Positions 2,871 to 60,563 of a DNA stretch of 64,000 bases are shown in pieces. Source of the DNA: a virus (taxonomy: Duplodnaviria > Caudoviricetes); the IMG/VR virus record IMGVR_UViG_3300026094_000002. One strand, written 5' to 3'. Made by a program: the position numbers and the translations under genes. The stretch's first letter is position 1, and the number at the start of each line of letters is the position of its first letter. The notes below the pieces were generated by a model. That model ran no database searches and was not told the DNA's origin. It worked only from the letters and a program-made list of their open reading frames with translations.

Positions 2871-5800
2871 ATGGCACAATTAACAAGAACAATTGATTTA
2901 TTACCTGAGATTTTTCGGACTGAGCCAAACCGAAAATTTTTGTCATCAACCCTTGACCAGTTAACTCGCAATCCAGAGTTTGAGCGTGTTCAGGGATTTA
3001 TTGGCAGAGTTAGTACGCCCGGGTATAATACATCAGACAATTATGTTGATGAACTAACCGCAGAGCGAACCAATTATCAACTTGAGCCGGGAGTAGTCTT
3101 TACAGATGAGGACTCAAGCAATGCAGAAGATGCCATCACTTACCCGGGAATGCTTGATGCTCTATCCAATAACGGTGCCGATGTATCACGCCACGACCGA
3201 CTTTTTAAGGCTGAATATTCTGCGTGGGACCCGTTCATTGATTTTGACAAATTCAGCAACTTTAATCGGTATTACTGGTTACCTGCTGGGCCAGATTCCG
3301 TAGATGTTTCTGCTACGGAAATTCCATTTACTGATAGTTTTGATGTCTCTCGCCAAGAGTCAAGTTATCAACTAGAAGGGTTGGCAGGTAACAACCCAAT
3401 TATTACGCTTGTTCGTGGTGGCAGTTATACATTTGAATTAAATCAGCCGGGAAACCCCTTTTGGATACAAACTGAACCCGGCACTTCTGGAACATTAGAT
3501 GGTGCTACTAACCGATCTTCGCGTAATGTTTTGGGTGTTGTTAATAATGGTTCAGATACTGGTACTATCACATTCAATGTTCCTGATCGTAACGAACAAA
3601 GTTTCTTTTACAATTTACAAAGTGTCGGAACAGTTGATTTAATAACAGATATTGGTTTTGATGAAATTAATAACCGCTATGTTGATGAATTTATTGACGA
3701 ATATGGTGGTATTGATGGGGTAACTGATTTCAATGGTAAGTCAGTAGTAATAACACAACCAACTGATAGCAATTCTTGGAATCAAACTACATTTTTTGAC
3801 CCTCTTGAAGAAGCAACCGAAAATAACGGCGAGATTGGATCATTTGACACGCAATCGTGGGACCAGACATCTCCTATAACAAATATTTCAGAAACCAGAA
3901 GTATTTGGAGAATTTCGGTAATAGAAGGCAATGATGGAAGATCTTATCTGTCATTAACTGCTGTTCAAGAAGTGCCTAAATTAAGCAAATTCACCGTTGA
4001 GTTTGGAGAGCAAAACGCCAACAGAAGTTTCTACCGAGATTCTGGGAATGAATTTGAAGAAATACCGCTACTTTCAGCAATAAAAGATACATTATATTAT
4101 CAAGATCAAAACAATCCAGATTTGTTTGGTCGTATACTATTGGTTGGGCAAGAGCAAAGAGGGTTGCTCGATGTCAATGATATTATTGGCAGAAAAGAAT
4201 ATACAAGTCCAAATGGCGTTGAATTTACAAATGGATTAAAAGTACAATTCCGGGGATTAGTAGTACCTGAATCATTTGCCGATAACCAGTATTATGTTGA
4301 AGGCGTTGGAACATCAATTATGTTGCTTCCAGTTGAAGATTTTATCACCCCGGAAACATACACCGATAGCGAAGCAATACGATTTGACCAATTTCCTTTT
4401 GATATTGGTAATTTTGAAGAGTCTCTTAACCAACCACAACAACCAGATTATCTGACAATCAATAGAGCAAGTCCTGATTCAAATCCGTGGACCCGCTCAA
4501 ATCGTTGGTTTCACGAGGATGTTATACGAGAAACCGCAAGATACAATAATACAAATCCAGCGATTAATAATAACCAAAAAGCCCGACGACCAATTTTAGA
4601 GTTTAGATTGGGACTGCGTCTGTTTAATTTTGGCACAAAAAACTTAGACACAGTTGATGTTATTGATTTCTCTCAAACTGATGCATTTACTAATGTGAAT
4701 GGGTCTGGTGGTTACAGTATAGACGGTGTTTCTCTGCTTGATGGAACACGGATTATTTTTGCAAATGATAATGATCGTCGTGTTAGAGACAAAATTTATG
4801 AAGTATCTTTGAGAGACCCCAATGATGATGGCGATCAGCAAGTTCTTTTAAATGAAGCAACATCAACAATTGATATTGATGATAATATAATCGTCAAGAG
4901 TGGTGCTCGCAACCAAGGAAAAAGTTTCCGATATGATGGTGATTCGTGGGTACCTGCACAACAAAAAGAAAGCATAAATCAAGCACCGCTATTTGATGTA
5001 TTTGATGAAAATGGTAATAGTTTCGGCAATCAAGAAATATATCCCGGAAGTAACTTTTCAGGGTCAAAACTTTTTTCATATGCTGTTGGAACTGGTCCCG
5101 AAGATGATATACTAGAATTCCCACTTGAATTTTTAACTATTAACAATGTAGGTGACATAGTATTCAATAACAATTTTTATACTGATACTTTTACGGCTGT
5201 AGATGGTCGTACAAGCAAAACTGTTAATGTTAAATCCGGCTATGTTCGGGAATATGACCAAACCGGTGATTATCAAAGACGCATTGGCTGGCAAAAAGCA
5301 GTCGCACCTGCTCAACAAAAACAAGTATTCCGATATGCATACCAAACAGGCAGAGATTTATCATTAGATATTCCAGTTAAACAAGACACTGACATCCCCG
5401 CAGTAAAAATTACAGCAGATTCTGAGTTTGTATCACCATCACAGTATGAGATAACAGTTAATTCTAATAATACTCTTATAAAATTTTTAGAACAACCAGA
5501 ACCCGGCACAATAATTGAAGTACGGGCATTATCAGACAAAGCATCTAGTGTTGGATTTTATGAAATTCCTGCTAACTTGGAAAGAAATTCATTTAATGAA
5601 GAATCAGCCAATGTCACATTGGGAACTATAAGAAATCATTATCAAACACTTGTACAAAATATTCCTGAACTTCGTGGTCAAATTAATGGATCAAATAACA
5701 GCCGTGATTTAGGAAACATTGTTCCTTTTGGAACAGACATTATACAGCATAGCAGTTCAATGTTACCAACTGGCGGCGTCTTGCGTTCCGGTAGAGTTGA

Positions 5801-8800
5801 GTTTTTTGATGCATTAGAGTTCAACGCTCGTGCTTATGAAACCTATAAAACACGGATTATTGATCTTGTAACAAGACAAGATTTTGGTAATGCCCCGGCT
5901 CGCAGAATACTTGATCAAGTCGTTGCACGAATTTCTTCTGAAAAGAGTGAAAACAGTGCATTTTACTGGAGTGATATGCTACCAAGTGGTCTTGATTTTG
6001 TTGATAGCGAAACCGTTGTAAGAGAAGTGACCGGACAGGATTTTGATACGGTATATTCGTATGATTTTAATAATGCCAACCGTCAAAGTTTAATGGTATA
6101 TCTTAATGATAAGATTCTTTTAAAAGACGATGATTATGAAGTATCAACAGATTCGCCTTCTATAACAATTAAACAAGATTTGACAGTTGGTGATCGCGTT
6201 CTTATACGCGAGTATACAAAAACAAATGCAAGTTTTGTACCTAACACACCAACTAAAATAGGTCTATATCCTGCATACAAACCGGCTAAGTTTGTTGATG
6301 ATACATTTGTAGAGCCAGTCAATGTGTTACGTGGACACGATGGATCAATCACGGTAGCATATGACGATATCAGGGATGATGTAATATTAGAGTTTGAAAG
6401 CAGAGTTTATAACAATCTTAAAGTATCTTCAGAGATACCAATTAACGAGGCTGATATCATACCCGGAAAATTTAGAAAAACCGATTATGATTTAGAAACA
6501 ATAAACAATATATTATCAACAGAATTTTTAACGTGGTCTGGGCTGAATCGTTTGGACTATCGCAATCAGACTTATATTGCTGATAACGACTTTACATACA
6601 ATTATTCTACCGCCAATGATGTTGTTGATGGAGAAGCCCTCCTTGGACACTGGAGAGGGATTTACGAGTATTTTTATGATACTGACAGCCCACATTCTCG
6701 TCCTTGGGAAATGCTTGGTTTAACAACAAAGCCGACGTGGTGGGAAAGCACATATGGCCCTGCACCATATACAGAAAACAACTTAATTTTATGGCAAGAT
6801 ATCGCAGATGGTAAAGTTCGTGATCCTTCTGGAGAATATATTAATGAGTCTAGAGTTCGCCGTGGGCTTCTTGATGTAATACCAGTTGATGGGCACGGAA
6901 ATCTTAAATCGCCATTGGATAATGTAGTAAACAATTATAATTTCCAAGACTTTAGAAAAAAATGGGTATTTGGTGATGGTGCTCCAGTAGAAACTGCGTG
7001 GAGAAGAAGTAGCACGTATCCTTTTGTTATACAAAGGCTTATTGCATTGACTCGCCCAGCGAAATATTTTGCTACTGGCATTGATCGTGATCGTTATCAA
7101 TTTAATTCTGAGTTTGAACAGTATCTTTTTGATTCTCGTTCACGTCTTGATATTACAGATTTAAACAGTTATGGACAGGGCAACCCACAAAATAGTTACT
7201 TTAACTGGGTTTCTGACTACGAAAAACAATTAGGTAACGTTGATCAAGATTGCGTGAATGATTGCTTTTCAAACATTGATGTTAGACTTTGTTATCGCTT
7301 AGCCGGATTCTCAGACAAACAGTATCTCAGACTTTTTGCCGAGAACTTTACGCCTGATACACAAAACAGCAGTTTGTTGGTACCACAGGAAAGTTATCAA
7401 TTATTACTGTATCAAAATGAACCTGATGCAAGAATATCTTTTAGTTCGGTGATTGTACAGGTCAGTGACAATGGTTGGACAGTTTGGGGTAACAGTTCTG
7501 CCCGACCATATTTTGAAATTACCCAAAGCATACCAAATGGCAACTTTAACACAATTACTGTTGATGATGTGTCTGTAAGATATGCACGAGACTTTGATAA
7601 CGAAATCACACGTGTTCCATATGGATATACATTTAGAAGCCGAGACGCAGTTGTTGACTTTTTGATCAGTTATGGACGGCAACTTGAGTCAAGAGGTATG
7701 CAATTCAATACAAGAAGCAATGGAATTGGTATTGATTGGGGACAAATAGCAAGGGAGTTTTTAAACTGGAGTCAACAGGGTTGGGGCATTGGTAATATTA
7801 TTAACCTAAACCCAGCCGCTGAAAACATTTTGGTTAATAGAGCAGCCGGGCTGCTTGAAGATGTTTCCAGTGATCCACGGGTACTGCTAAACCAAAACAG
7901 AAACCCAATAAAATCTAACAATTATAATGTTGATCGTAGTGGTGACTTAACGGAAATATCGGTTTTATCTGAAGAACTTATTGGGCTGGCAGAACTTAAT
8001 TTTGTCAATTATGAACATTTATTGATTTTGGATAACTCAAGTATATTTGCTGATTTGTTTTATGATCCAGCATCAGGAAACAGACAAAATAGATTGCTCC
8101 TCTCTGGATCTAAAACTACAAACTGGGCAGGTCGCCCAGATGCCCCGGGCTTTCTTATATCTGATCCCGATATTCCAGATTGGTCACCAAACAATAGATA
8201 TGCCCGTGGCGAAATAGTTAGGTTTAAAAATCAACTGTGGAGTGCGAAAGAGTTAATAGAACCATCTGAAGAGTTTGATTACAATGATTGGTTGCCAAGT
8301 GATTTTGATGATACCCGACAAGGTCTTTTGCCGAATATAGCGACAAAAGCAGACGATGCACTTGATTATTATAATAAAAACTCTGCGAATCTTAACAAAG
8401 ATTCTGATTTGCTGGGACTTGGTATAATAGGATTCCGTCCACGTGATTATCTTGAGAATCTCAACTTAGATGATATAACACAAACCAATCTTTATAGTAA
8501 TTTCATTGCAACTAAAGGCACTTTGCCCACAACTCAATTATTATCTACTGCTGATTTTGCAAAAGAAAGAGCAGATTATGGTGTGTTTGAAAACTGGGCC
8601 GTAAAACAAGGCACTTATGGTGCTAATGGCAATCGTTCATATTTTGAAATATCACTAAACCAAGAAGAATTACAAGCCAATCCTTCTACTATATCAATTG
8701 TTGAGAACAATGATGATGTAGCCGCAGATCAGGCAGTCCGCGTAGAAAGACTTTATAAAGAAAGCGTAAGATTTTCAAACAGTAATATTTTACCAGAACT

Positions 8801-21294: not shown

Positions 21295-22108
21295 TGATAA
21301 AGGTTATTTAATCACCGCAATAAAGAGTGAAACAACTGATTATCTAACATGTGCCCGGGCATTGGCAAAAAGTATTCGGTATTGGCAACCGGAATCAAAA
21401 ATTTGTCTTCTTACAAATTACGAGCAAGTTGAGAACGATAGCGTATTTGATTATGTAAAAGCGTTTCGGTATTCAATTGACGAGACTAATCCATTTGCAA
21501 ATGATTGGCAAATTTTCTTCTGTAGTCCGTTTCACGAAACAATAAAATTAGAATCTGATATTGTTTTAACTGGTTCAATAGAGCATTGGTGGACACACTT
21601 AAGAAAACGCGATGTTGTTATATCACAAGGATGCAGGAACTTTTATGGACATTGGTCTAAAGAAAGGTTTTACCGCCGGTTATTTGATCAAAACAATTTG
21701 CCTGATGTGTATAATGCAATTACATACTGGAGAATGAGTAAGTTTTCTAAAGAATTCTTTGCTCAAGTCAGACATATTTTTGATAACTGGGATAGTTATT
21801 ACAAATTATTATCTGGAGTTGACAAAGACTTGGTTCCAGACACAGATCTTGTGTATTCAATTGCTGCTGTCATGGTTGGAGAAGAAAATGTAACACTGCC
21901 AAATGCAGAATATCCAAGTTTTGTTCATATGAAAGGAAAGCACAATAATTTCCCCGGTGAAGATTGGACTCGGCATTTGGTATGGGAGTTAGATGAAGGA
22001 CAATTGCGAATTAATACATTTTCTCAACAGCAGCCTGTTCATTATCATGAGAAAACATTCTCACATAAAATAGAGGAACACTATGACCAACTTTTGGCAA
22101 GGTCTTGA
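21281..22108 (+). CDS. Glycosyltransferase-like protein, paralog of the upstream gene
   Basis: SPFHETIKLESD aligns with TPYDQTLLLDVD; DTDLVYSIA aligns with RNDYALSIA; FVHMKG. Confidence 0.55.
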   Translation: MKPVDDKGYLITAIKSETTDYLTCARALAKSIRYWQPESKICLLTNYEQVENDSVFDYVKAFRYSIDETNPFANDWQIFFCSPFHETIKLESDIVLTGSIEHWWTHLRKRDVVISQGCRNFYGHWSKERFYRRLFDQNNLPDVYNAITYWRMSKFSKEFFAQVRHIFDNWDSYYKLLSGVDKDLVPDTDLVYSIAAVMVGEENVTLPNAEYPSFVHMKGKHNNFPGEDWTRHLVWELDEGQLRINTFSQQQPVHYHEKTFSHKIEEHYDQLLARS

Positions 22109-22427
22109 AGAATTTAACCAACAAGAAAACAAACCGGTTGAAATAGAGTTTCGTTTATATTATAATGAGTATGGTTATCCGTTGTTTTATACAACAGAAA
22201 AAGTGTCTGGGAAATATATCGTTATAGACCGAGACACTTATGTTCGTGGAGATTACCAAAACATCAAGGTGAAAGATGGTCGTATTTTACAACAAAACCC
22301 CACTGATTCAATAAAGTTAGTACATGATGATTCGGCGGGAACTTGTTGTTTAAAAAATGACATTACACTAATTGACGAGTCTGGACAGGGACAATATTGG
22401 AAATTAAAAACACATGAATATCGTTGA
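22083..22427 (+). CDS. Hypothetical protein (114 aa)
   Basis: ORF overlapping both neighbours in operon style; GAGGA upstream. Confidence 0.6.
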   Translation: MTNFWQGLEEFNQQENKPVEIEFRLYYNEYGYPLFYTTEKVSGKYIVIDRDTYVRGDYQNIKVKDGRILQQNPTDSIKLVHDDSAGTCCLKNDITLIDESGQGQYWKLKTHEYR

Positions 22428-50131: not shown

Positions 50132-50458
50132 TTATACACCAAAACTAGAACCACAGCCACAAGTAGTTTCAGCATTCGGATTATCAATGACGAATTGCTC
50201 GCCCATTAATCCTTCAGTATAATCTATTCTTGCACCTTCGAGATATTGCATGCTGAAGAAATCAACAACAACTTTGTATTCTTCGTTAAGATCAAATTCC
50301 CAATCGCCTTCATCTTGGTCTTCTACAAGTGCAAAGCCATACTGGAATCCAGAACACCCACCACCCTCAATAAATGTTCTTAACTTGAGATTAGGGTTGT
50401 CTTCTTCTTTGAGAATTTCAACTATTTTGGAACGAGCATTGTCGGTAATTTCAATCAT
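50132..50458 (-). CDS. A-type Fe-S cluster carrier (HesB/IscA/ErpA family)
   Basis: GGGCSGFQY and CGCGSSF motifs. Confidence 0.95.
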   Translation of the reverse strand: MIEITDNARSKIVEILKEEDNPNLKLRTFIEGGGCSGFQYGFALVEDQDEGDWEFDLNEEYKVVVDFFSMQYLEGARIDYTEGLMGEQFVIDNPNAETTCGCGSSFGV

Positions 50459-50495
50459 AACAATATTTATAAGGATATAGGAACGAAGTGTAAAA

Positions 50496-50761
50496 TCAGC
50501 CCGTTCTGTTTACAGGTGGGCCAGACCCAGAGCGACTAAGCAGCTAGTGCGAAATCCTCAGAATAAAAATCGTCATTTGCGACTATTTTAGTTTGCTTCT
50601 ACGATCGGGTAACCCCAATCCTAACGGCTTCAGCATTGCCGATTCTCCACGATGCTTCGTTCTGCTCCGTCGAAACTGTTTCATCCCCATAGTTGGTGGA
50701 GATGCCCGGTACTGCCCCGGGGTCCGCAACAGCGTCCCATCGCTTCATCAAATTCTTAATT
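50496..50761 (-). ncRNA. ssrA: Circularly permuted two-piece tmRNA, alphaproteobacterial type
   Basis: Minus strand: T-arm CCCGG-GGCAGTA-CCGGG, CATCTCC-ACCA (CCA end 50694), 5-nt spacer, GGGGATG..TTTCGAC (G1 at 50688, G3.U pair), tag ORF 50580-50536 ANDDFYSEDFALAA*. Confidence 0.92.
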
Positions 50762-51953
50762 AAATATATTTATGTTGTTTATTGCCATCATTATGAAGTA
50801 TTTTGTTTGCAATGTCAATAGCAGTGTATGCACTTAGAGTCCAGCCTAAATGCCCGTGGCCTGTATTATACCATATATTGGAATTCTTCTTGCTCTGCTT
50901 GACAATAGGCATCATGTTCGGTGTCATTGGCCGAAGACCTGCCCACGGAACAACACTTTCTGTATTCATTTGTGGAAATAACTCTTCTGTCCAATCAACC
51001 AATGGCTGGACACGATGTTGGAGAATATCGCGGTTATATCCATTAAATTCTGCTGTACCAGCGGCACGGAAGCGAGACTCGCCCAGTCGGGAACTAACAA
51101 TTTTTGTTTCATCATCAAGCAAACTAGTCCATGGACTATTTCCCGGTTCATTAACAGTAATAGAATATCCTTTTACAGGATAGATTGGCAAGTTATCACC
51201 AATAAGTTTAGCAATGTCACGACTTCCAGTGCCAGCACAAATGACTACTGGTCCTTGCTTTTGGAATAGTTCTAATGAATCCTTGTCAACTGTTTCCTGA
51301 ACAAATTGAACGGCATAATGTCTTTCTAAGCAACGTGCAAGGTTTGTACAAAACTTGTGAATATCACCTGTAAAATCTTCTTCTGTGTAAAATCCACCGA
51401 CAATAGAGCGTCTAGAATTTTGTAGTTCCGGCTCAATAGAAAATACTTCTTCTGAGGTAATTTCATTACGAGCAAGCCCAGCCGACCGATAAATTTTGTT
51501 AGTCAGTCTTGCACTCTGTAAATCTTTCTCATTAGAATAGATGTGCATTATGCCTTGTTTTACACAGTCAAAATCAATTCCCTCACGCTCGGCAATATTT
51601 TTGTAAAGATCGTGTGCTTCAATTGCCATCTCGCAAGTATGGTGTGTATTTTCTTTTCTGTTTGGAATGTGACTTAAAAATTTTGCAAACCAAGAATACT
51701 TGTGAAGTGACGGTGCGGGATTGATTTTTAGCGGTGCATCTTTTCGAAACATCCACTTAGCACCTTTTGCTACATTGTGCCAACTATTCCATACTTCTGA
51801 GTTTGATGCACTTAACTGCCCACCATTTGCATATGATGTTCCCATTCCCGAATATCTTTCTTGATCAACCACAAGAACATCGTAACCTGAACGTGCAAGA
51901 TAATATGCTGTAGTAATACCAGTTATTCCAGCACCGATGACCGTAACTGTCAC
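50760..51953 (-). CDS. FAD-dependent D-amino acid dehydrogenase (DadA-like)
   Basis: VIGAGITG, TSYANGGQ, YPVKGYS, WAGLRPMTP, NTGHGHLGWT. Confidence 0.88.
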   Translation of the reverse strand: MTVTVIGAGITGITTAYYLARSGYDVLVVDQERYSGMGTSYANGGQLSASNSEVWNSWHNVAKGAKWMFRKDAPLKINPAPSLHKYSWFAKFLSHIPNRKENTHHTCEMAIEAHDLYKNIAEREGIDFDCVKQGIMHIYSNEKDLQSARLTNKIYRSAGLARNEITSEEVFSIEPELQNSRRSIVGGFYTEEDFTGDIHKFCTNLARCLERHYAVQFVQETVDKDSLELFQKQGPVVICAGTGSRDIAKLIGDNLPIYPVKGYSITVNEPGNSPWTSLLDDETKIVSSRLGESRFRAAGTAEFNGYNRDILQHRVQPLVDWTEELFPQMNTESVVPWAGLRPMTPNMMPIVKQSKKNSNIWYNTGHGHLGWTLSAYTAIDIANKILHNDGNKQHKYI

Positions 51954-52581: not shown

Positions 52582-54129
52582 TTAGTATTTTGATTTAGGT
52601 ATTTTAAATAATCTTTCTTTATATTTTCTGGATATATCTTCTCTTTTTGATACAAGGGAATGCCAATCAAAAGTTTTTATTGTCTTGTTAAAGGTGTGTT
52701 CTAGATCAACGCCAGTTATACATGCGTAAAATGCGGATAAACTGCTGATTTTTTTCTCAGCGACATTATTTCCTTTAACGATATAATGGTCAGCTAGATG
52801 GATACATTCAGTTAAGCATGTGTGTTGATTCTCCCATCTATAAGATTTTAAACTTTGATCCCATTCTAATAACGTGTACCCATATTGTGAGTAATTTAAC
52901 TCTATTTTACTTAAAAATTTTTTTTGTAGAGGCCCTATCATTAGTGGAAATATGAGCCAGCTATCCAATCCGCTTTCTCCAGCAACTAACATATCCCCAG
53001 TTTTTTTCATGCTCTCTACTGGTTCTTCTGGGAGTCCAAAGATAAATGTACCATGGAGGGAGACACTGTTTCCATATTTGTTTTTAATATATTTTACGGT
53101 GTCAAACATTTTATCTCTATCACCCCCCTTGCCGATTAACGAAGAAGTTTTTTTGTTTAGTGTTTCGATTCCAAAGTGACAGGCACGGAGTCCGCTATCG
53201 AACAATTTGTCAATGTATTCTTTATGTGCTGTTAATAAATCTAAGCGTATATATGCCCAATATTCAAGTTTAAACGGAAGTTCTTTAGAAATCTGATATA
53301 TTAACTCGATTTTTTCAATGCTGTCGTTAAAAGTATCATCACTAAAGATGTACCTAGTAATGCCAAAATTTTCATAATGGTAAATGAATTCTTTTAATAG
53401 TATATTTTTTAATTTAATGAAATCATTTTTTTTCTTTCCATTTAACGGATATGAACAAAACGCACAATTAAAAATACATCCTCTAGAAATTTCAGTTACT
53501 AATGACTCGTTATCTAATAATAAATCATTTTCATGAAAAAGCATTGGGGTTTCAGAAAAATTATATCCCTCGGCTTTGGCATCATCTATTACTATAGATT
53601 TGTACAAACTCTTCTTGGCGTTTTTTAATGGTTCGTTTTTTGACAAATGATTGGCTAGATTGACAGCAGAGTTGTCTGCGTATCCTATTATAGTGTAGTC
53701 AAAATATTTAATATAAGGCAACACTTGTGCATCAGGTCCACCTAATACTAGTTTACAGTTTTTGTTAAGTGTTTTAATTAAATTAATAATTCTGCTATTA
53801 AATTCTATACCATGTGGCAATAGTGCACCGGGCACTTTTTCGCCAAAACGAATCCCACCGCTCTCCCATTGATTGTCATTATCAATAGTGTTTTGTTGTG
53901 AAATATCTTTATAAAAAAAGGTATTAAATCCAACAAATAATGTATCAGCATCGATAAAGTATTTTAGTGCTTCTTCTATTTCATCAAGTGAAAAAGTATG
54001 TAGAAAATCAATAACTTGTACTTTATAGCCACTATTTCTTAATGCTGCCGCTACTTTATATGGGCCCAATGTTCTAGACAAAAAGACTTCATCAACATTA
54101 TCATTGAGCAATAGAATATTTTTAGTCAT
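52582..54129 (-). CDS. Cobalamin-binding (class B) radical SAM protein, putative methyltransferase
   Basis: N-terminal LGPYKVAAAL..VIDF..LGGP B12-binding-like domain; EISRGCIFNCAFC; FSDDTF; HFGIET; FIFGLP. Confidence 0.88.
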   Translation of the reverse strand: MTKNILLLNDNVDEVFLSRTLGPYKVAAALRNSGYKVQVIDFLHTFSLDEIEEALKYFIDADTLFVGFNTFFYKDISQQNTIDNDNQWESGGIRFGEKVPGALLPHGIEFNSRIINLIKTLNKNCKLVLGGPDAQVLPYIKYFDYTIIGYADNSAVNLANHLSKNEPLKNAKKSLYKSIVIDDAKAEGYNFSETPMLFHENDLLLDNESLVTEISRGCIFNCAFCSYPLNGKKKNDFIKLKNILLKEFIYHYENFGITRYIFSDDTFNDSIEKIELIYQISKELPFKLEYWAYIRLDLLTAHKEYIDKLFDSGLRACHFGIETLNKKTSSLIGKGGDRDKMFDTVKYIKNKYGNSVSLHGTFIFGLPEEPVESMKKTGDMLVAGESGLDSWLIFPLMIGPLQKKFLSKIELNYSQYGYTLLEWDQSLKSYRWENQHTCLTECIHLADHYIVKGNNVAEKKISSLSAFYACITGVDLEHTFNKTIKTFDWHSLVSKREDISRKYKERLFKIPKSKY

Positions 54130-54342: not shown

Positions 54343-54897
54343 TTATTTGCGACAGGTATCTGCTAAACCTTTTAATAGTGCAGAAGATGGTATTTGTCCC
54401 GGGTGGTTTTTCTCTCGTTGCCATTTCCCCTGTATGCCATATGCAAGAGCCTCTAACGTCCCTTTACAATATTTGCTATTATAGAATCCATTTACTTTTT
54501 GCATAAAGTGAACTAACTCATGAACAAGTATGTGACGGGTATCCCAATCTCTTACACTAAAATTCGTATCAAAATACATTGTGTTCTTACCAGCATGATA
54601 AAGGGCAGCAATATTACTGTTGTTTATTTTCTGTAAATCTTTTTTGGTTTGGTTTTTTGGATCTGGGTCAATACCATAGAATCGTATTGCCATTTCTTCT
54701 CGTGATATTTTTTTAATATTTGGTAATTCTTCTCCATTGTAGTCTAAAAATGTTTCAGAACTAATCCATTCAACATGCTTTAGTACAATTTCTTGGCGTT
54801 GTTGTGTATCAACTTGATGAATTAAAAGTGAAAATATTATTACTATTATAGTAAGTGAAATGTATTTTAAAACAATGGAAAACGTATTATTATGCAC
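54343..54897 (-). CDS. Membrane-anchored zincin-like protein (HExxH)
   Basis: N-terminal hydrophobic helix; LVHELVHFMQ..EALAY; GTG start. Confidence 0.65.
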   Translation of the reverse strand: MHNNTFSIVLKYISLTIIVIIFSLLIHQVDTQQRQEIVLKHVEWISSETFLDYNGEELPNIKKISREEMAIRFYGIDPDPKNQTKKDLQKINNSNIAALYHAGKNTMYFDTNFSVRDWDTRHILVHELVHFMQKVNGFYNSKYCKGTLEALAYGIQGKWQREKNHPGQIPSSALLKGLADTCRK

Positions 54898-60006: not shown

Positions 60007-60012
60007 TAAATA
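60007..60012 (+). promoter_or_regulatory. TAAATA late-promoter motif (example; others at +16867, +17599, +17624, +54953, -47199, -48898, -50464, -50767, -54135, -54918, -55318, -56079, -56806)
   Basis: Core of the T4 late promoter TATAAATA, repeatedly found just upstream of starts. Confidence 0.6.
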
Positions 60013-60017
60013 TCACT

Positions 60018-60563
60018 ATGATTGATGATATTAAAAATTTCTTAAACATTGTTGAAGCGGCTGGTGTTCCCGGCGTTAAACAATATGATCGTGATGAAAC
60101 AAAGATCACTGCTCAAATTGACAGCAAACTTGGACCAAAGTTTGACCGACTTGTAGATGATCTGCAAAAAGTTGATAATTTAAAAGCCCAACTAAAACAG
60201 ATGCAAGATACCACAAAAACACAGACACGGCAAGATGTTGCATTTTTATTTGATGTTGAAGATGCAGTATTCACTCGCGTCATTGAAACAAAGAATGTTA
60301 TTTTAGAAATATCTAAAGATCCCAAGCCAACAGAATCACCACAATATAAAAAGATTCTTGAAGCATTAGAAAAACATTTAACACCTGATCTCGTTGAAGT
60401 TCTTGAAAAATTAAAAGAAGAACATAAAACCGTTACTCAAAAAGATCCAGCAGTCAAATATAAATTTAAAGAAGATGCGTCAGATGAATTAGATTTAGAT
60501 CCAGTCAAACAGTGGCTTGACACATACGACCGCAAACTTGATTTAGTTAAACAATATCTTTAA
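60018..60563 (+). CDS. Coiled-coil hypothetical protein (181 aa), lone + strand gene in this block
   Basis: ATG 5 nt after TAAATA, no SD. Confidence 0.7.
   Translation: MIDDIKNFLNIVEAAGVPGVKQYDRDETKITAQIDSKLGPKFDRLVDDLQKVDNLKAQLKQMQDTTKTQTRQDVAFLFDVEDAVFTRVIETKNVILEISKDPKPTESPQYKKILEALEKHLTPDLVEVLEKLKEEHKTVTQKDPAVKYKFKEDASDELDLDPVKQWLDTYDRKLDLVKQYL

Follow-up and report, generated by a model that had tools for sequence, protein, structure and literature searches.

The two-piece transfer-messenger RNA (tmRNA) of Alphaproteobacteria, exemplified by ssrA of Caulobacter crescentus, is encoded in permuted order: an acceptor piece, CCA, an intervening segment and a coding piece follow one another. 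Phages carry such genes as well. Among marine myophages, the Methylophilales phage Melnitz has a two-piece alpha-type tmRNA, as do pelagimyophages, and 53 two-piece tmRNAs were counted among 18,146 phage genomes, with a tmRNA type that need not match the class of the host (Buchholz et al. 2022, PMC9004378). Huge phages are reported to encode tmRNAs and SmpB (Al-Shayeb et al. 2020, PMC7162821); the annotation of AP-J-162, a Sinorhizobium jumbo phage akin to Atu_ph07, lists a single tmRNA and, clpX among them, six Clp genes (PMC11242549); and a 2025 tmRNA database holds 79 phage sequences and records that CCA is not always encoded (PMC11915505). Here we analyse a 64,000-nucleotide stretch of viral DNA (the window) from IMG/VR record IMGVR_UViG_3300026094_000002, which carries a permuted tmRNA gene on its minus strand at ~50761-50494. 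We consider it probable that this is a functional phage-encoded two-piece tmRNA gene, predicted to belong to a jumbo myophage that has Agrobacterium phage Atu_ph07 and Sinorhizobium phage Phosso among its relatives. A phage-borne permuted tmRNA is one more example of a kind already published; what is new is an apparent exchange of cassettes among related phage tmRNAs that share one backbone.

The gene shares with the alphaproteobacterial form not only the permuted order but also the GGCnGUA T-loop, a 7-bp acceptor stem with G3.U70, the P2 helix and a tag of the AND...ALAA type. It differs in being phage-encoded, with no adjacent or detectable smpB, in an extra hairpin (50620-50603), in a 14-residue tag type not found in 401 sampled alphaproteobacterial genomes, and in lying behind phage-type promoter motifs in place of the bacterial -10 element ~70-79 nt upstream of the T-loop. 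Like Melnitz, for which no smpB is reported, the window presents a complete alpha-type permuted ssrA of a lytic myophage (PMC9004378). Unlike Melnitz, it is assigned to a jumbo phage group like Atu_ph07 in samples that are of saline or soda-lake type by contig and run names, it shows no detectable glutamine riboswitch (an Rfam search gave tmRNA matches only), and it has candidate tandem sigma70-type and ATAAATA promoters where an early promoter was proposed for Melnitz.

Architecture of the tmRNA gene

ARAGORN found a single tmRNA in the window, of type 'Permuted', with the 3' tRNA domain preceding the 5' domain and with tag peptide ANDDFYSEDFALAA. The Rfam model tmRNA_permuted (RF04321) gave a full-length match (positions 1-213) of 99.3 bits (gathering score 47, E = 3.9e-18), and alpha_tmRNA (RF01849) gave 74.4 bits (gathering score 50, E = 2.2e-18). 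The original prediction, made from the letters alone, had called a permuted tmRNA and had named ARAGORN and the Rfam alpha_tmRNA model as ways to check it; both were run and were positive, and every element it listed lies where it had been placed. The permuted gene is complete, and these matches are far above chance.

The acceptor piece spans 50694-50761 (minus strand; 5' end predicted), as delimited by the Rfam alignments, ARAGORN and direct reading. It contains the 5' strands of P2 (50753-50725), then GAC (50724-50722) and the T-arm (50721-50705), in which a 5-bp T-stem (CCCGG 50721-50717, CCGGG 50709-50705) carries a 7-nt T-loop of the alpha form, GGCAGUA (50716-50710). The acceptor 3' strand CAUCUCC (50704-50698), the discriminator A (50697) and an encoded CCA (50696-50694) complete this piece. 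Beyond the spacer ACUAU, the coding piece (50494-50688; 3' end approximate) begins with the acceptor 5' strand GGGGAUG (50688-50682), which by direct reading forms with CAUCUCC a 7-bp acceptor stem with the G3.U70 alanine determinant. The P2 3' strands (50669-50642) follow, then hairpins at 50641-50625 and 50620-50603, the tag frame, and a 3' hairpin (50516-50500) with CUGAUUUUAC behind it. According to ARAGORN the tag frame (50580-50536) runs from the resume codon GCA (Ala) to GCU (50580-50539), closing with GCU GCU UAG, whose stop codon occupies 50538-50536; the peptide ANDDFYSEDFALAA ends in ALAA.

Long-range P2 pairing joins the two pieces through AUUU/GAAU, GAUG/CAUC, UGU/GCA and GCG/CGG, with one G.G mismatch and one end unpaired. 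The second of the two hairpins is an insertion relative to both Rfam models. Upstream of the resume codon, in the place expected for pseudoknot 1, lie the two hairpins, and a possible 4-bp UGCU/AGCA loop pairing was recognized by eye; the folding tools used cannot model pseudoknots. Nucleotide BLAST of the tmRNA region gave no match in GenBank phages and chance-level matches only in five alphaproteobacterial genomes, because the tmRNA is too divergent for BLAST.

Relatives and apparently exchanged modules

A scan for the shared 26-nt start of the mRNA-like part recovered 3 viral and 32 metagenome contigs. These 35 sequences are partly redundant; 29 genes could be classified by their tRNA-like cassette, and the tag region was readable in 17 relatives. 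The sister tmRNAs (contigs L402-L436) have the same 26-nt start and the same backbone in P2 and the putative pseudoknot 1 as the window; most of them, unlike the window, have standard UUCGAnU T-loops and spacers of 8-11 or 67-84 nt.

Four cassettes, A to D, occur on this one backbone. Cassette A (GCGGG/UUCGACU/CCCGC; spacers 8-11 or 67-84 nt) is found in 15 genes, cassette B (GGGGU/UUCGAU/ACCCC) in 6, and cassette C (GUGGG/UUCGAAU/CCCAC), in which CCA is not encoded, in 4. Cassette D, with the alpha-type GGCAGUA loop and a spacer of 4-5 nt, occurs only in the window, L421 and L425; in the window it covers 50682-50725 on the minus strand, comprising GGAC, the alpha-type T-arm, the acceptor strands and the 5-nt spacer. 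Downstream, two 3' modules can be told apart, with 14-residue and 10-residue tags; both are found with each of cassettes A, C and D. The window pairs the rare alpha-type cassette with a tag module that elsewhere accompanies standard T-loops. The tags nearest to ANDDFYSEDFALAA are ANDNFYSEDFALAA (L404, L414, L427) and ANDDFYSENLALVA (L436).

Different parts of the window's gene are closest to different relatives. Its cassette is 95% identical to those of L421 and L425, with 53-56% identity in the tag frame and 52% in the 3' region; compared with L404, L414 and L436, the cassette is 64-72% identical (64-74% in another count), the tag frame 89-93% and the 3' region 84-92%. Because the cassette is nearest to L421/L425 and the tag module to L404/L414/L436, the tmRNA appears, from these comparisons, to be a recombinant within one phage lineage. 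The pair with L404 illustrates this at close range. Its contig, which is also that of the closest relative L323, is syntenic with the window at 77-84% nucleotide identity, and its DAO-family oxidoreductase, encoded by the upstream neighbour of the tmRNA in the window, is 88% identical as protein. The coding piece of the L404 tmRNA is 91% identical to the window's, above the 77-84% of the flanking genes, and its tRNA-like part has a UUCGACU T-loop, another acceptor stem and a 69-nt spacer.

Across the four cassettes, the relatives show purifying selection. A 7-bp acceptor stem with G3.U70 is present in all 29 classifiable genes, in seven stem sequences that differ by compensatory or wobble changes; that G3.U70 is kept through different sequences is good evidence of selection for alanine identity. 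In P2, the helix UGU/GCA becomes UAU/GUA in L403, a compensatory change, and the tag frame is intact in 17 of 17 relatives with a readable tag region.

A donor of cassette D was sought among 120 bacterial and ~160 viral loci: none had an identical core, and even the nearest differed at 2-3 of 32 nt. The exact cassette D pattern gave 0 matches in metagenome contigs, and an acceptor-stem pattern found no near-identical relatives in viral contigs. The tag pattern ANDxFxxED[FY]ALAA was not found in 401 evenly drawn alphaproteobacterial genomes (a sample); within the samples searched, the 14-residue tag type occurred only in viral or metagenomic contigs.

The related phage Phosso was also found to carry an alpha-type permuted tmRNA, in an unannotated gap of ~750 nt in this 469-kb cultured phage (PV764938.1:349553-350242, corresponding to L251:1501-2190 on the minus strand). 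It scores 108 bits (alpha_tmRNA) and 113 bits, has TAAATA upstream and is missed by ARAGORN. Unlike the window's gene, it lies at another genomic position, has an intervening segment of ~400 nt and encodes the tag ANDNVSTKVALAA. No tmRNA was found in Atu_ph07 or PA5oct.

Two further features of the cassettes were observed. In cassette C (L409, L414, L416, L430) the discriminator A is followed by 8 nt (AAAACUGU or AGAACUGC) and then by GGGGACG or GGGGGCG, so that the processed RNA would still need its CCA added. A conserved hairpin (UGAGCACA...UGUGCUCA) is common to the long spacers found in cassettes A and B.

The 5-nt spacer

Between CCA and G1 of the coding piece lies the spacer ACUAU (50689-50693, minus strand), which would serve both as the 3' trailer of the acceptor piece and as the 5' leader of the coding piece. 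The original prediction had considered this spacer very short; its length proves to be ordinary. A scan of one genome per species, allowing 1-12 nt, found spacers of 2-12 nt in at least 120 alphaproteobacterial species, including Pelagibacter, SAR116, Devosia, Acetobacter and Rickettsiales; among the matches listed, the spacer is exactly 5 nt in 13 species and 2 nt in five. A pattern scan of viral contigs, limited to spacers of at most 30 nt, found 119 alpha-type loci; their spacers span 3-30 nt, with a length of 5 nt in one (L117) and of 3 nt in two. The base at -1 to G1 is U in the window, as it is in 73% of the viral and 68% of the bacterial permuted genes sampled. A U before G1 agrees with the known preference of RNase P.

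Promoter motifs upstream of the gene

An ATAAATA box (50767-50773, minus strand) lies directly upstream of the tmRNA. The original prediction had seen TAAATA in the last codons of the upstream gene and had proposed a late promoter of the tmRNA's own; TAAATA is indeed present at 50772-50767, with a predicted start at A50761, inside the stop codon of the DAO gene. The sequence CATAAATA matches the T4 late -10 consensus TATAAATA at 7/8 positions; promoters of this type have no -35 element and lie a few bases ahead of the start of late genes.

ATAAATA is a genuine, genome-wide, gene-oriented promoter-type motif. The 194,522-bp record, of which ~11% is non-coding, holds 41 sites, 34 of them intergenic or partly so. 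Within the 60 nt before crude gene calls the motif occurs 25 times in sense and 3 times in antisense orientation. Its distance to ATG falls into two classes, 5-7 nt and ~21-24 nt, the latter with a Shine-Dalgarno sequence between, and the genes with an assignable role behind it encode a baseplate wedge, a tail fibre and a virion structural protein. Among 101 unique viral tmRNA loci there are 62 TAAATA occurrences 38-55 nt upstream of the T-loop GTACC (54 nt in the window) and, in the same zone, 44 occurrences of TATAAATA. In bacterial tmRNA loci, TAAATA is found in the -85 to -45 stretch in 9/116, and many have a TATAAT-like box further upstream.

A sigma70-type promoter candidate (50790-50818, minus strand) lies 16 nt upstream of the ATAAATA box, also inside the 3' end of the DAO-family gene. 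It consists of TTGACA (50818-50813), 17 nt and CATAAT (50795-50790), with 11/12 matches and a predicted start at ~50783. Sites with at least 11/12 matches number 31 in the genome, 17 of them intergenic, against 3-18 (mean ~11) in Markov simulations, an excess of roughly threefold. L421 and L425, which have the same cassette, show TTTACA-17-TATAAT followed by ATAAATA. We therefore regard tandem promoters, sigma70-type and ATAAATA, as likely, and because the sigma70-type candidate lies upstream of ATAAATA, expression may be early as well as late and is probably not restricted to late times. The late promoter proposed originally is well supported by the comparison as far as the adjoining motif goes, but 'late' is an incomplete description.

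Two run searches for transcripts led to one metatranscriptome run, with a small share of matching words, and to a single 237-nt contig. The contig comes from a relative ~92% identical to the window and covers 50556-50759, uncut across the spacer; DNA carry-over is possible, so the contig is no evidence of expression or processing.

Several related observations concern the motif elsewhere. ATAAATA followed by exactly 5 nt and ATG precedes 12 genes of the record, against 0 for a reversed-pattern control; examples in the window are at 50470-50456 (minus strand) and 60012-60018 (plus strand). The same arrangement occurs 5 times in the 490 kb of Atu_ph07, 0 times in Phosso and 8 times in PA5oct (control 4). 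If the motif acts like a T4 late promoter, transcription would start at the A of the ATG and yield leaderless late mRNAs. In the cassette-B genes L402, L410 and L417 and in the cassette-A gene L428, ATAAGTA replaces ATAAATA 10 nt before the conserved GATGAAGCGATG, and may be a variant of the promoter motif. Outside the window, at 29-39 kb of the record, several perfect TTGACA-N16/17-TATAAT promoters lie around six tRNA genes (Leu-UAA, Thr-UGU, Asn-GUU, Lys-UUU, Gln-UUG and Met-CAU).

SmpB and Clp partners

As the original prediction had noted, no smpB is present in the window: a search with PF01668 found no SmpB there or in the whole 194,522-bp record. Nor was PF01668 found in the complete genomes of Phosso, Atu_ph07 and PA5oct; Phosso nonetheless has an alpha-type tmRNA. 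Some huge phages carry SmpB; the 194-kb fragment does not.

The record does encode Clp proteins, all of them outside the window. ClpX (5020-6225, 401 amino acids) scores 507 bits with the NCBIfam equivalog (cut-off 359) and has the ClpX zinc finger; ClpP (21537-22121, 194 amino acids) scores 305 bits (cut-off 249). A ClpA-like double-AAA protein (95691-97976, 761 amino acids) reaches 818 bits, below the ClpA cut-off of 993. Together with the tmRNA, these proteins would cover most of a tag-and-degrade pathway, with SmpB as the missing part. A C-terminal LAA is a ClpXP degron, and the phage ClpX may read the ...ALAA tag.

From these elements we infer how transcription, processing, charging, the use of SmpB and the fate of tagged proteins would proceed. 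One precursor would be transcribed from the phage promoters, the sigma70-type one by host RNA polymerase and the ATAAATA late-type one with a start at ~50761. Host RNase P would cleave 5' of G50688, and host 3' exonucleases would trim the ACUAU trailer to the encoded CCA. The 7-bp acceptor stem and P2 would hold the two pieces together, and host AlaRS would charge the RNA with alanine via G3.U70. With host SmpB and EF-Tu, the RNA would enter stalled ribosomes and append ANDDFYSEDFALAA, whose ...ALAA end would route the product to ClpXP, for which the phage encodes its own ClpX and ClpP as well as the ClpA-like protein.

The original prediction had also raised the possibility that the phage tmRNA stands in for a degraded host tmRNA, which is conjecture. 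The same inventory is open to another interpretation, that the RNA is made but mainly interferes with or redirects the host system, by competing for SmpB or by marking host proteins for phage ClpXP and so recycling amino acids. There is precedent for both ideas: mycobacteriophage DS6A has a tmRNA-like RNA that lacks a tag and inhibits endogenous tmRNA (cited in PMC11915505), and selective tagging of host proteins was proposed for Melnitz (PMC9004378). A phage with ClpX, ClpP and a ClpA-like protein and with no SmpB found, and a 14-residue tag type confined, in the samples searched, to viral or metagenomic contigs (none of the 401 alphaproteobacterial genomes had it), would also fit. However, the gene keeps all features for normal trans-translation, including an intact frame ending in ALAA, and a tmRNA cannot choose its substrates, since it gains entry to every ribosome that has stalled at the end of an mRNA. 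The present data do not separate rescue from redirection, and we regard interference as the main role as improbable.

Phage context and assembly

The window lies in a linear 194,522-bp record with a CheckV completeness of 56%, and the tmRNA is ~54 kb from its nearer end. PHROGs matches flank the gene on both sides (ATPase phrog_1297, phrog_1314 and exonuclease phrog_107). At the window start, a baseplate wedge gene (phrog_10646) is followed by genes for a giant structural protein of 4,662 amino acids and a protein of 200 amino acids; this last pair is syntenic with Phosso and Atu_ph07, and the 200-residue protein is 55-57% identical. No integrase was found in the 194-kb record. Two separately filed DNA runs (2017, 2021), one of them possibly the sample behind the window assembly, hold exact contigs that run from the DAO gene into the cassette (50627-51400 and 50627-51134) and from the tmRNA 3' end into the downstream ErpA-like gene (50179-50527). 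Variants in metagenomes fall in loops or preserve pairing. Because of the phage-family neighbours, the synteny, the lack of an integrase and the exact junction contigs, the tmRNA is, on this sequence evidence, a phage gene and not host flank.

These findings leave little room for a host origin of the DNA, be it a prophage boundary, a remnant of an attachment site or the product of chimeric metagenome assembly. It is true that tmRNA genes classically serve as integration sites and that tmRNA fragments occur in prophages (PMC9004378, PMC4383910), and the conserved tmRNA core is where many contigs of the lineage end, which shows a tangled assembly graph at that place. The window's gene is, however, complete and not a 3' fragment; it lies far from the record ends with phage genes on both sides and no integrase in 194 kb, a phage-type ATAAATA motif adjoins it, both junctions recur in exact contigs of two separately filed DNA runs, and the order DAO - tmRNA - ErpA-like is found again in L404 and L436. 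We consider such an origin very unlikely. Metagenome assemblers can switch strains at a conserved core, and the combinations of cassette C and of cassette D with a 14-residue tag were each seen in one assembly. In view of the exact contigs at both outer junctions, and of a single tmRNA between the same flanking genes in L404 and in L436, two compensating switches would be needed to make a chimera.

That the gene is a decaying, non-functional copy acquired from the host or from another phage, as its modest alpha_tmRNA score, the G.G mismatch in P2 and the hairpin inserted in the pseudoknot 1 region might suggest, is scarcely credible given an acceptor stem and P2 kept by compensatory changes across 29 relatives, a coding piece more conserved than the adjacent protein genes, a tag frame intact in 17/17 readable relatives, and conserved promoter motifs.

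Several points nevertheless weigh against a functional phage-encoded tmRNA of the composition read here. The alpha_tmRNA score of 74 bits is modest; P2 holds one G.G mismatch and no more than 4 pairs in its 5'-most helix; the expected pseudoknot 1 region is broken by a 20-22-nt hairpin (stem-loop 50620-50603); and the minimum-free-energy fold barely beats shuffles (z = -2.0). No smpB is present in the 56% of the genome covered, so that function would depend on host SmpB. A gp55-type sigma factor (phrog_234, phrog_12791) was not found in the 194,522-bp fragment, which is 56% of the genome; phrog_234 is present in Phosso, Atu_ph07 and PA5oct (E 4e-18 to 6e-21). Finally, across the conserved stretch 50528-50626 only the window's own assembly connects cassette D with the 14-residue tag.

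Neighbouring genes

The tmRNA is flanked by two genes of metabolic type. Upstream lies a DAO-family FAD-dependent oxidoreductase (50760-51953, minus strand; PF01266, E 6e-58) with its stop codon at 50762-50760, whose 3' end contains both promoter candidates. In the window this gene has lost its ancestral stop and gained 5 extra codons, which reach into the ATAAATA box. Downstream lies an IscA/ErpA-like Fe-S assembly gene (50458-50132, minus strand; PF01521, E 5e-17) with an ATAAATA of its own (50470-50464) 5 nt before the ATG. Where the gene order is shared, L404 has an extra 1.3 kb and L436 an extra 0.4 kb between DAO and tmRNA. The syntenic L404 lacks a B12-binding/radical SAM gene that in the window (52582-54129, minus strand) lies between a deaminase gene and the gene at 54343-54897.

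There are 141 viral relatives of the DAO protein; several contigs are 352-358 kb long and several have a tmRNA nearby, which is of the beta_tmRNA type in L324, L325, L355 and L388 and of the alpha_tmRNA type in L329. The intervening segments of two beta-type genes, L324 (~5640-5730, 89 nt) and L325 (~5720-5860, 135 nt), contain one small open frame each; one is hydrophobic with 24 residues and the other Cys-rich with 40 residues (MVVCSCRDIRD...CCGKC...). Searches of the phage genome with the Pfam families Gp23 and Portal_T4 gave no match, and the control genomes were equally silent, so that this result is uninformative.

Saline lakes are suggested by the contig names (soda-lake brine) and by the DNA run labels (soil, aquatic, lake water, soda lake). 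A marine origin, assumed by analogy with Melnitz, was dropped after the run and metagenome contig searches.

Discussion

The T-loop had been taken to indicate an alphaproteobacterial host. That argument does not hold: sister phages with a common backbone carry standard UUCGA T-loops, and an alpha-type tmRNA has been published from a phage whose host is a gammaproteobacterium (PMC9004378). The T-loop type differs within one phage lineage and is therefore a weak host marker. The G+C content is uninformative, because Atu_ph07 itself has 37.1% G+C (PMC11242549). Kinship with the Rhizobiaceae phages Atu_ph07 and Phosso hints at an alphaproteobacterial host.

The distribution of cassettes and tags might be explained if phage tmRNA genes evolve as two exchangeable modules, a tRNA-like cassette that would meet SmpB, AlaRS, EF-Tu and RNase P, and a tag module that would meet proteases. 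Jumbo phages that occur together would swap these modules at conserved junctions, and the swaps would cross types that are normally class-specific, between alpha-type GGCAGUA and standard UUCGA loops and between cassettes with and without an encoded CCA. The choice of cassette would then fit the machinery of the current host or evade nucleases that attack tRNA-like RNAs, and with phage ClpX and ClpP the RNA would make up a tag-and-degrade pathway owned for the most part by the phage. Taken jointly, these proposals are tentative, and it is doubtful that all of them hold.

A single phage permuted tmRNA does not by itself change the picture; the exchange of modules and the co-encoded Clp machinery are the parts of interest. 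That the tmRNA type, in the form of its T-loop, differs between close phage relatives weakens a host-prediction rule in common use. The natural combinations of cassette and tag on one backbone could be used to test which parts of a tmRNA must match the SmpB, AlaRS and RNase P of the host. With a tmRNA, ClpX, ClpP and a ClpA-like protein in one genome, this phage is a candidate for studying whether large phages take over protein quality control in infected cells.

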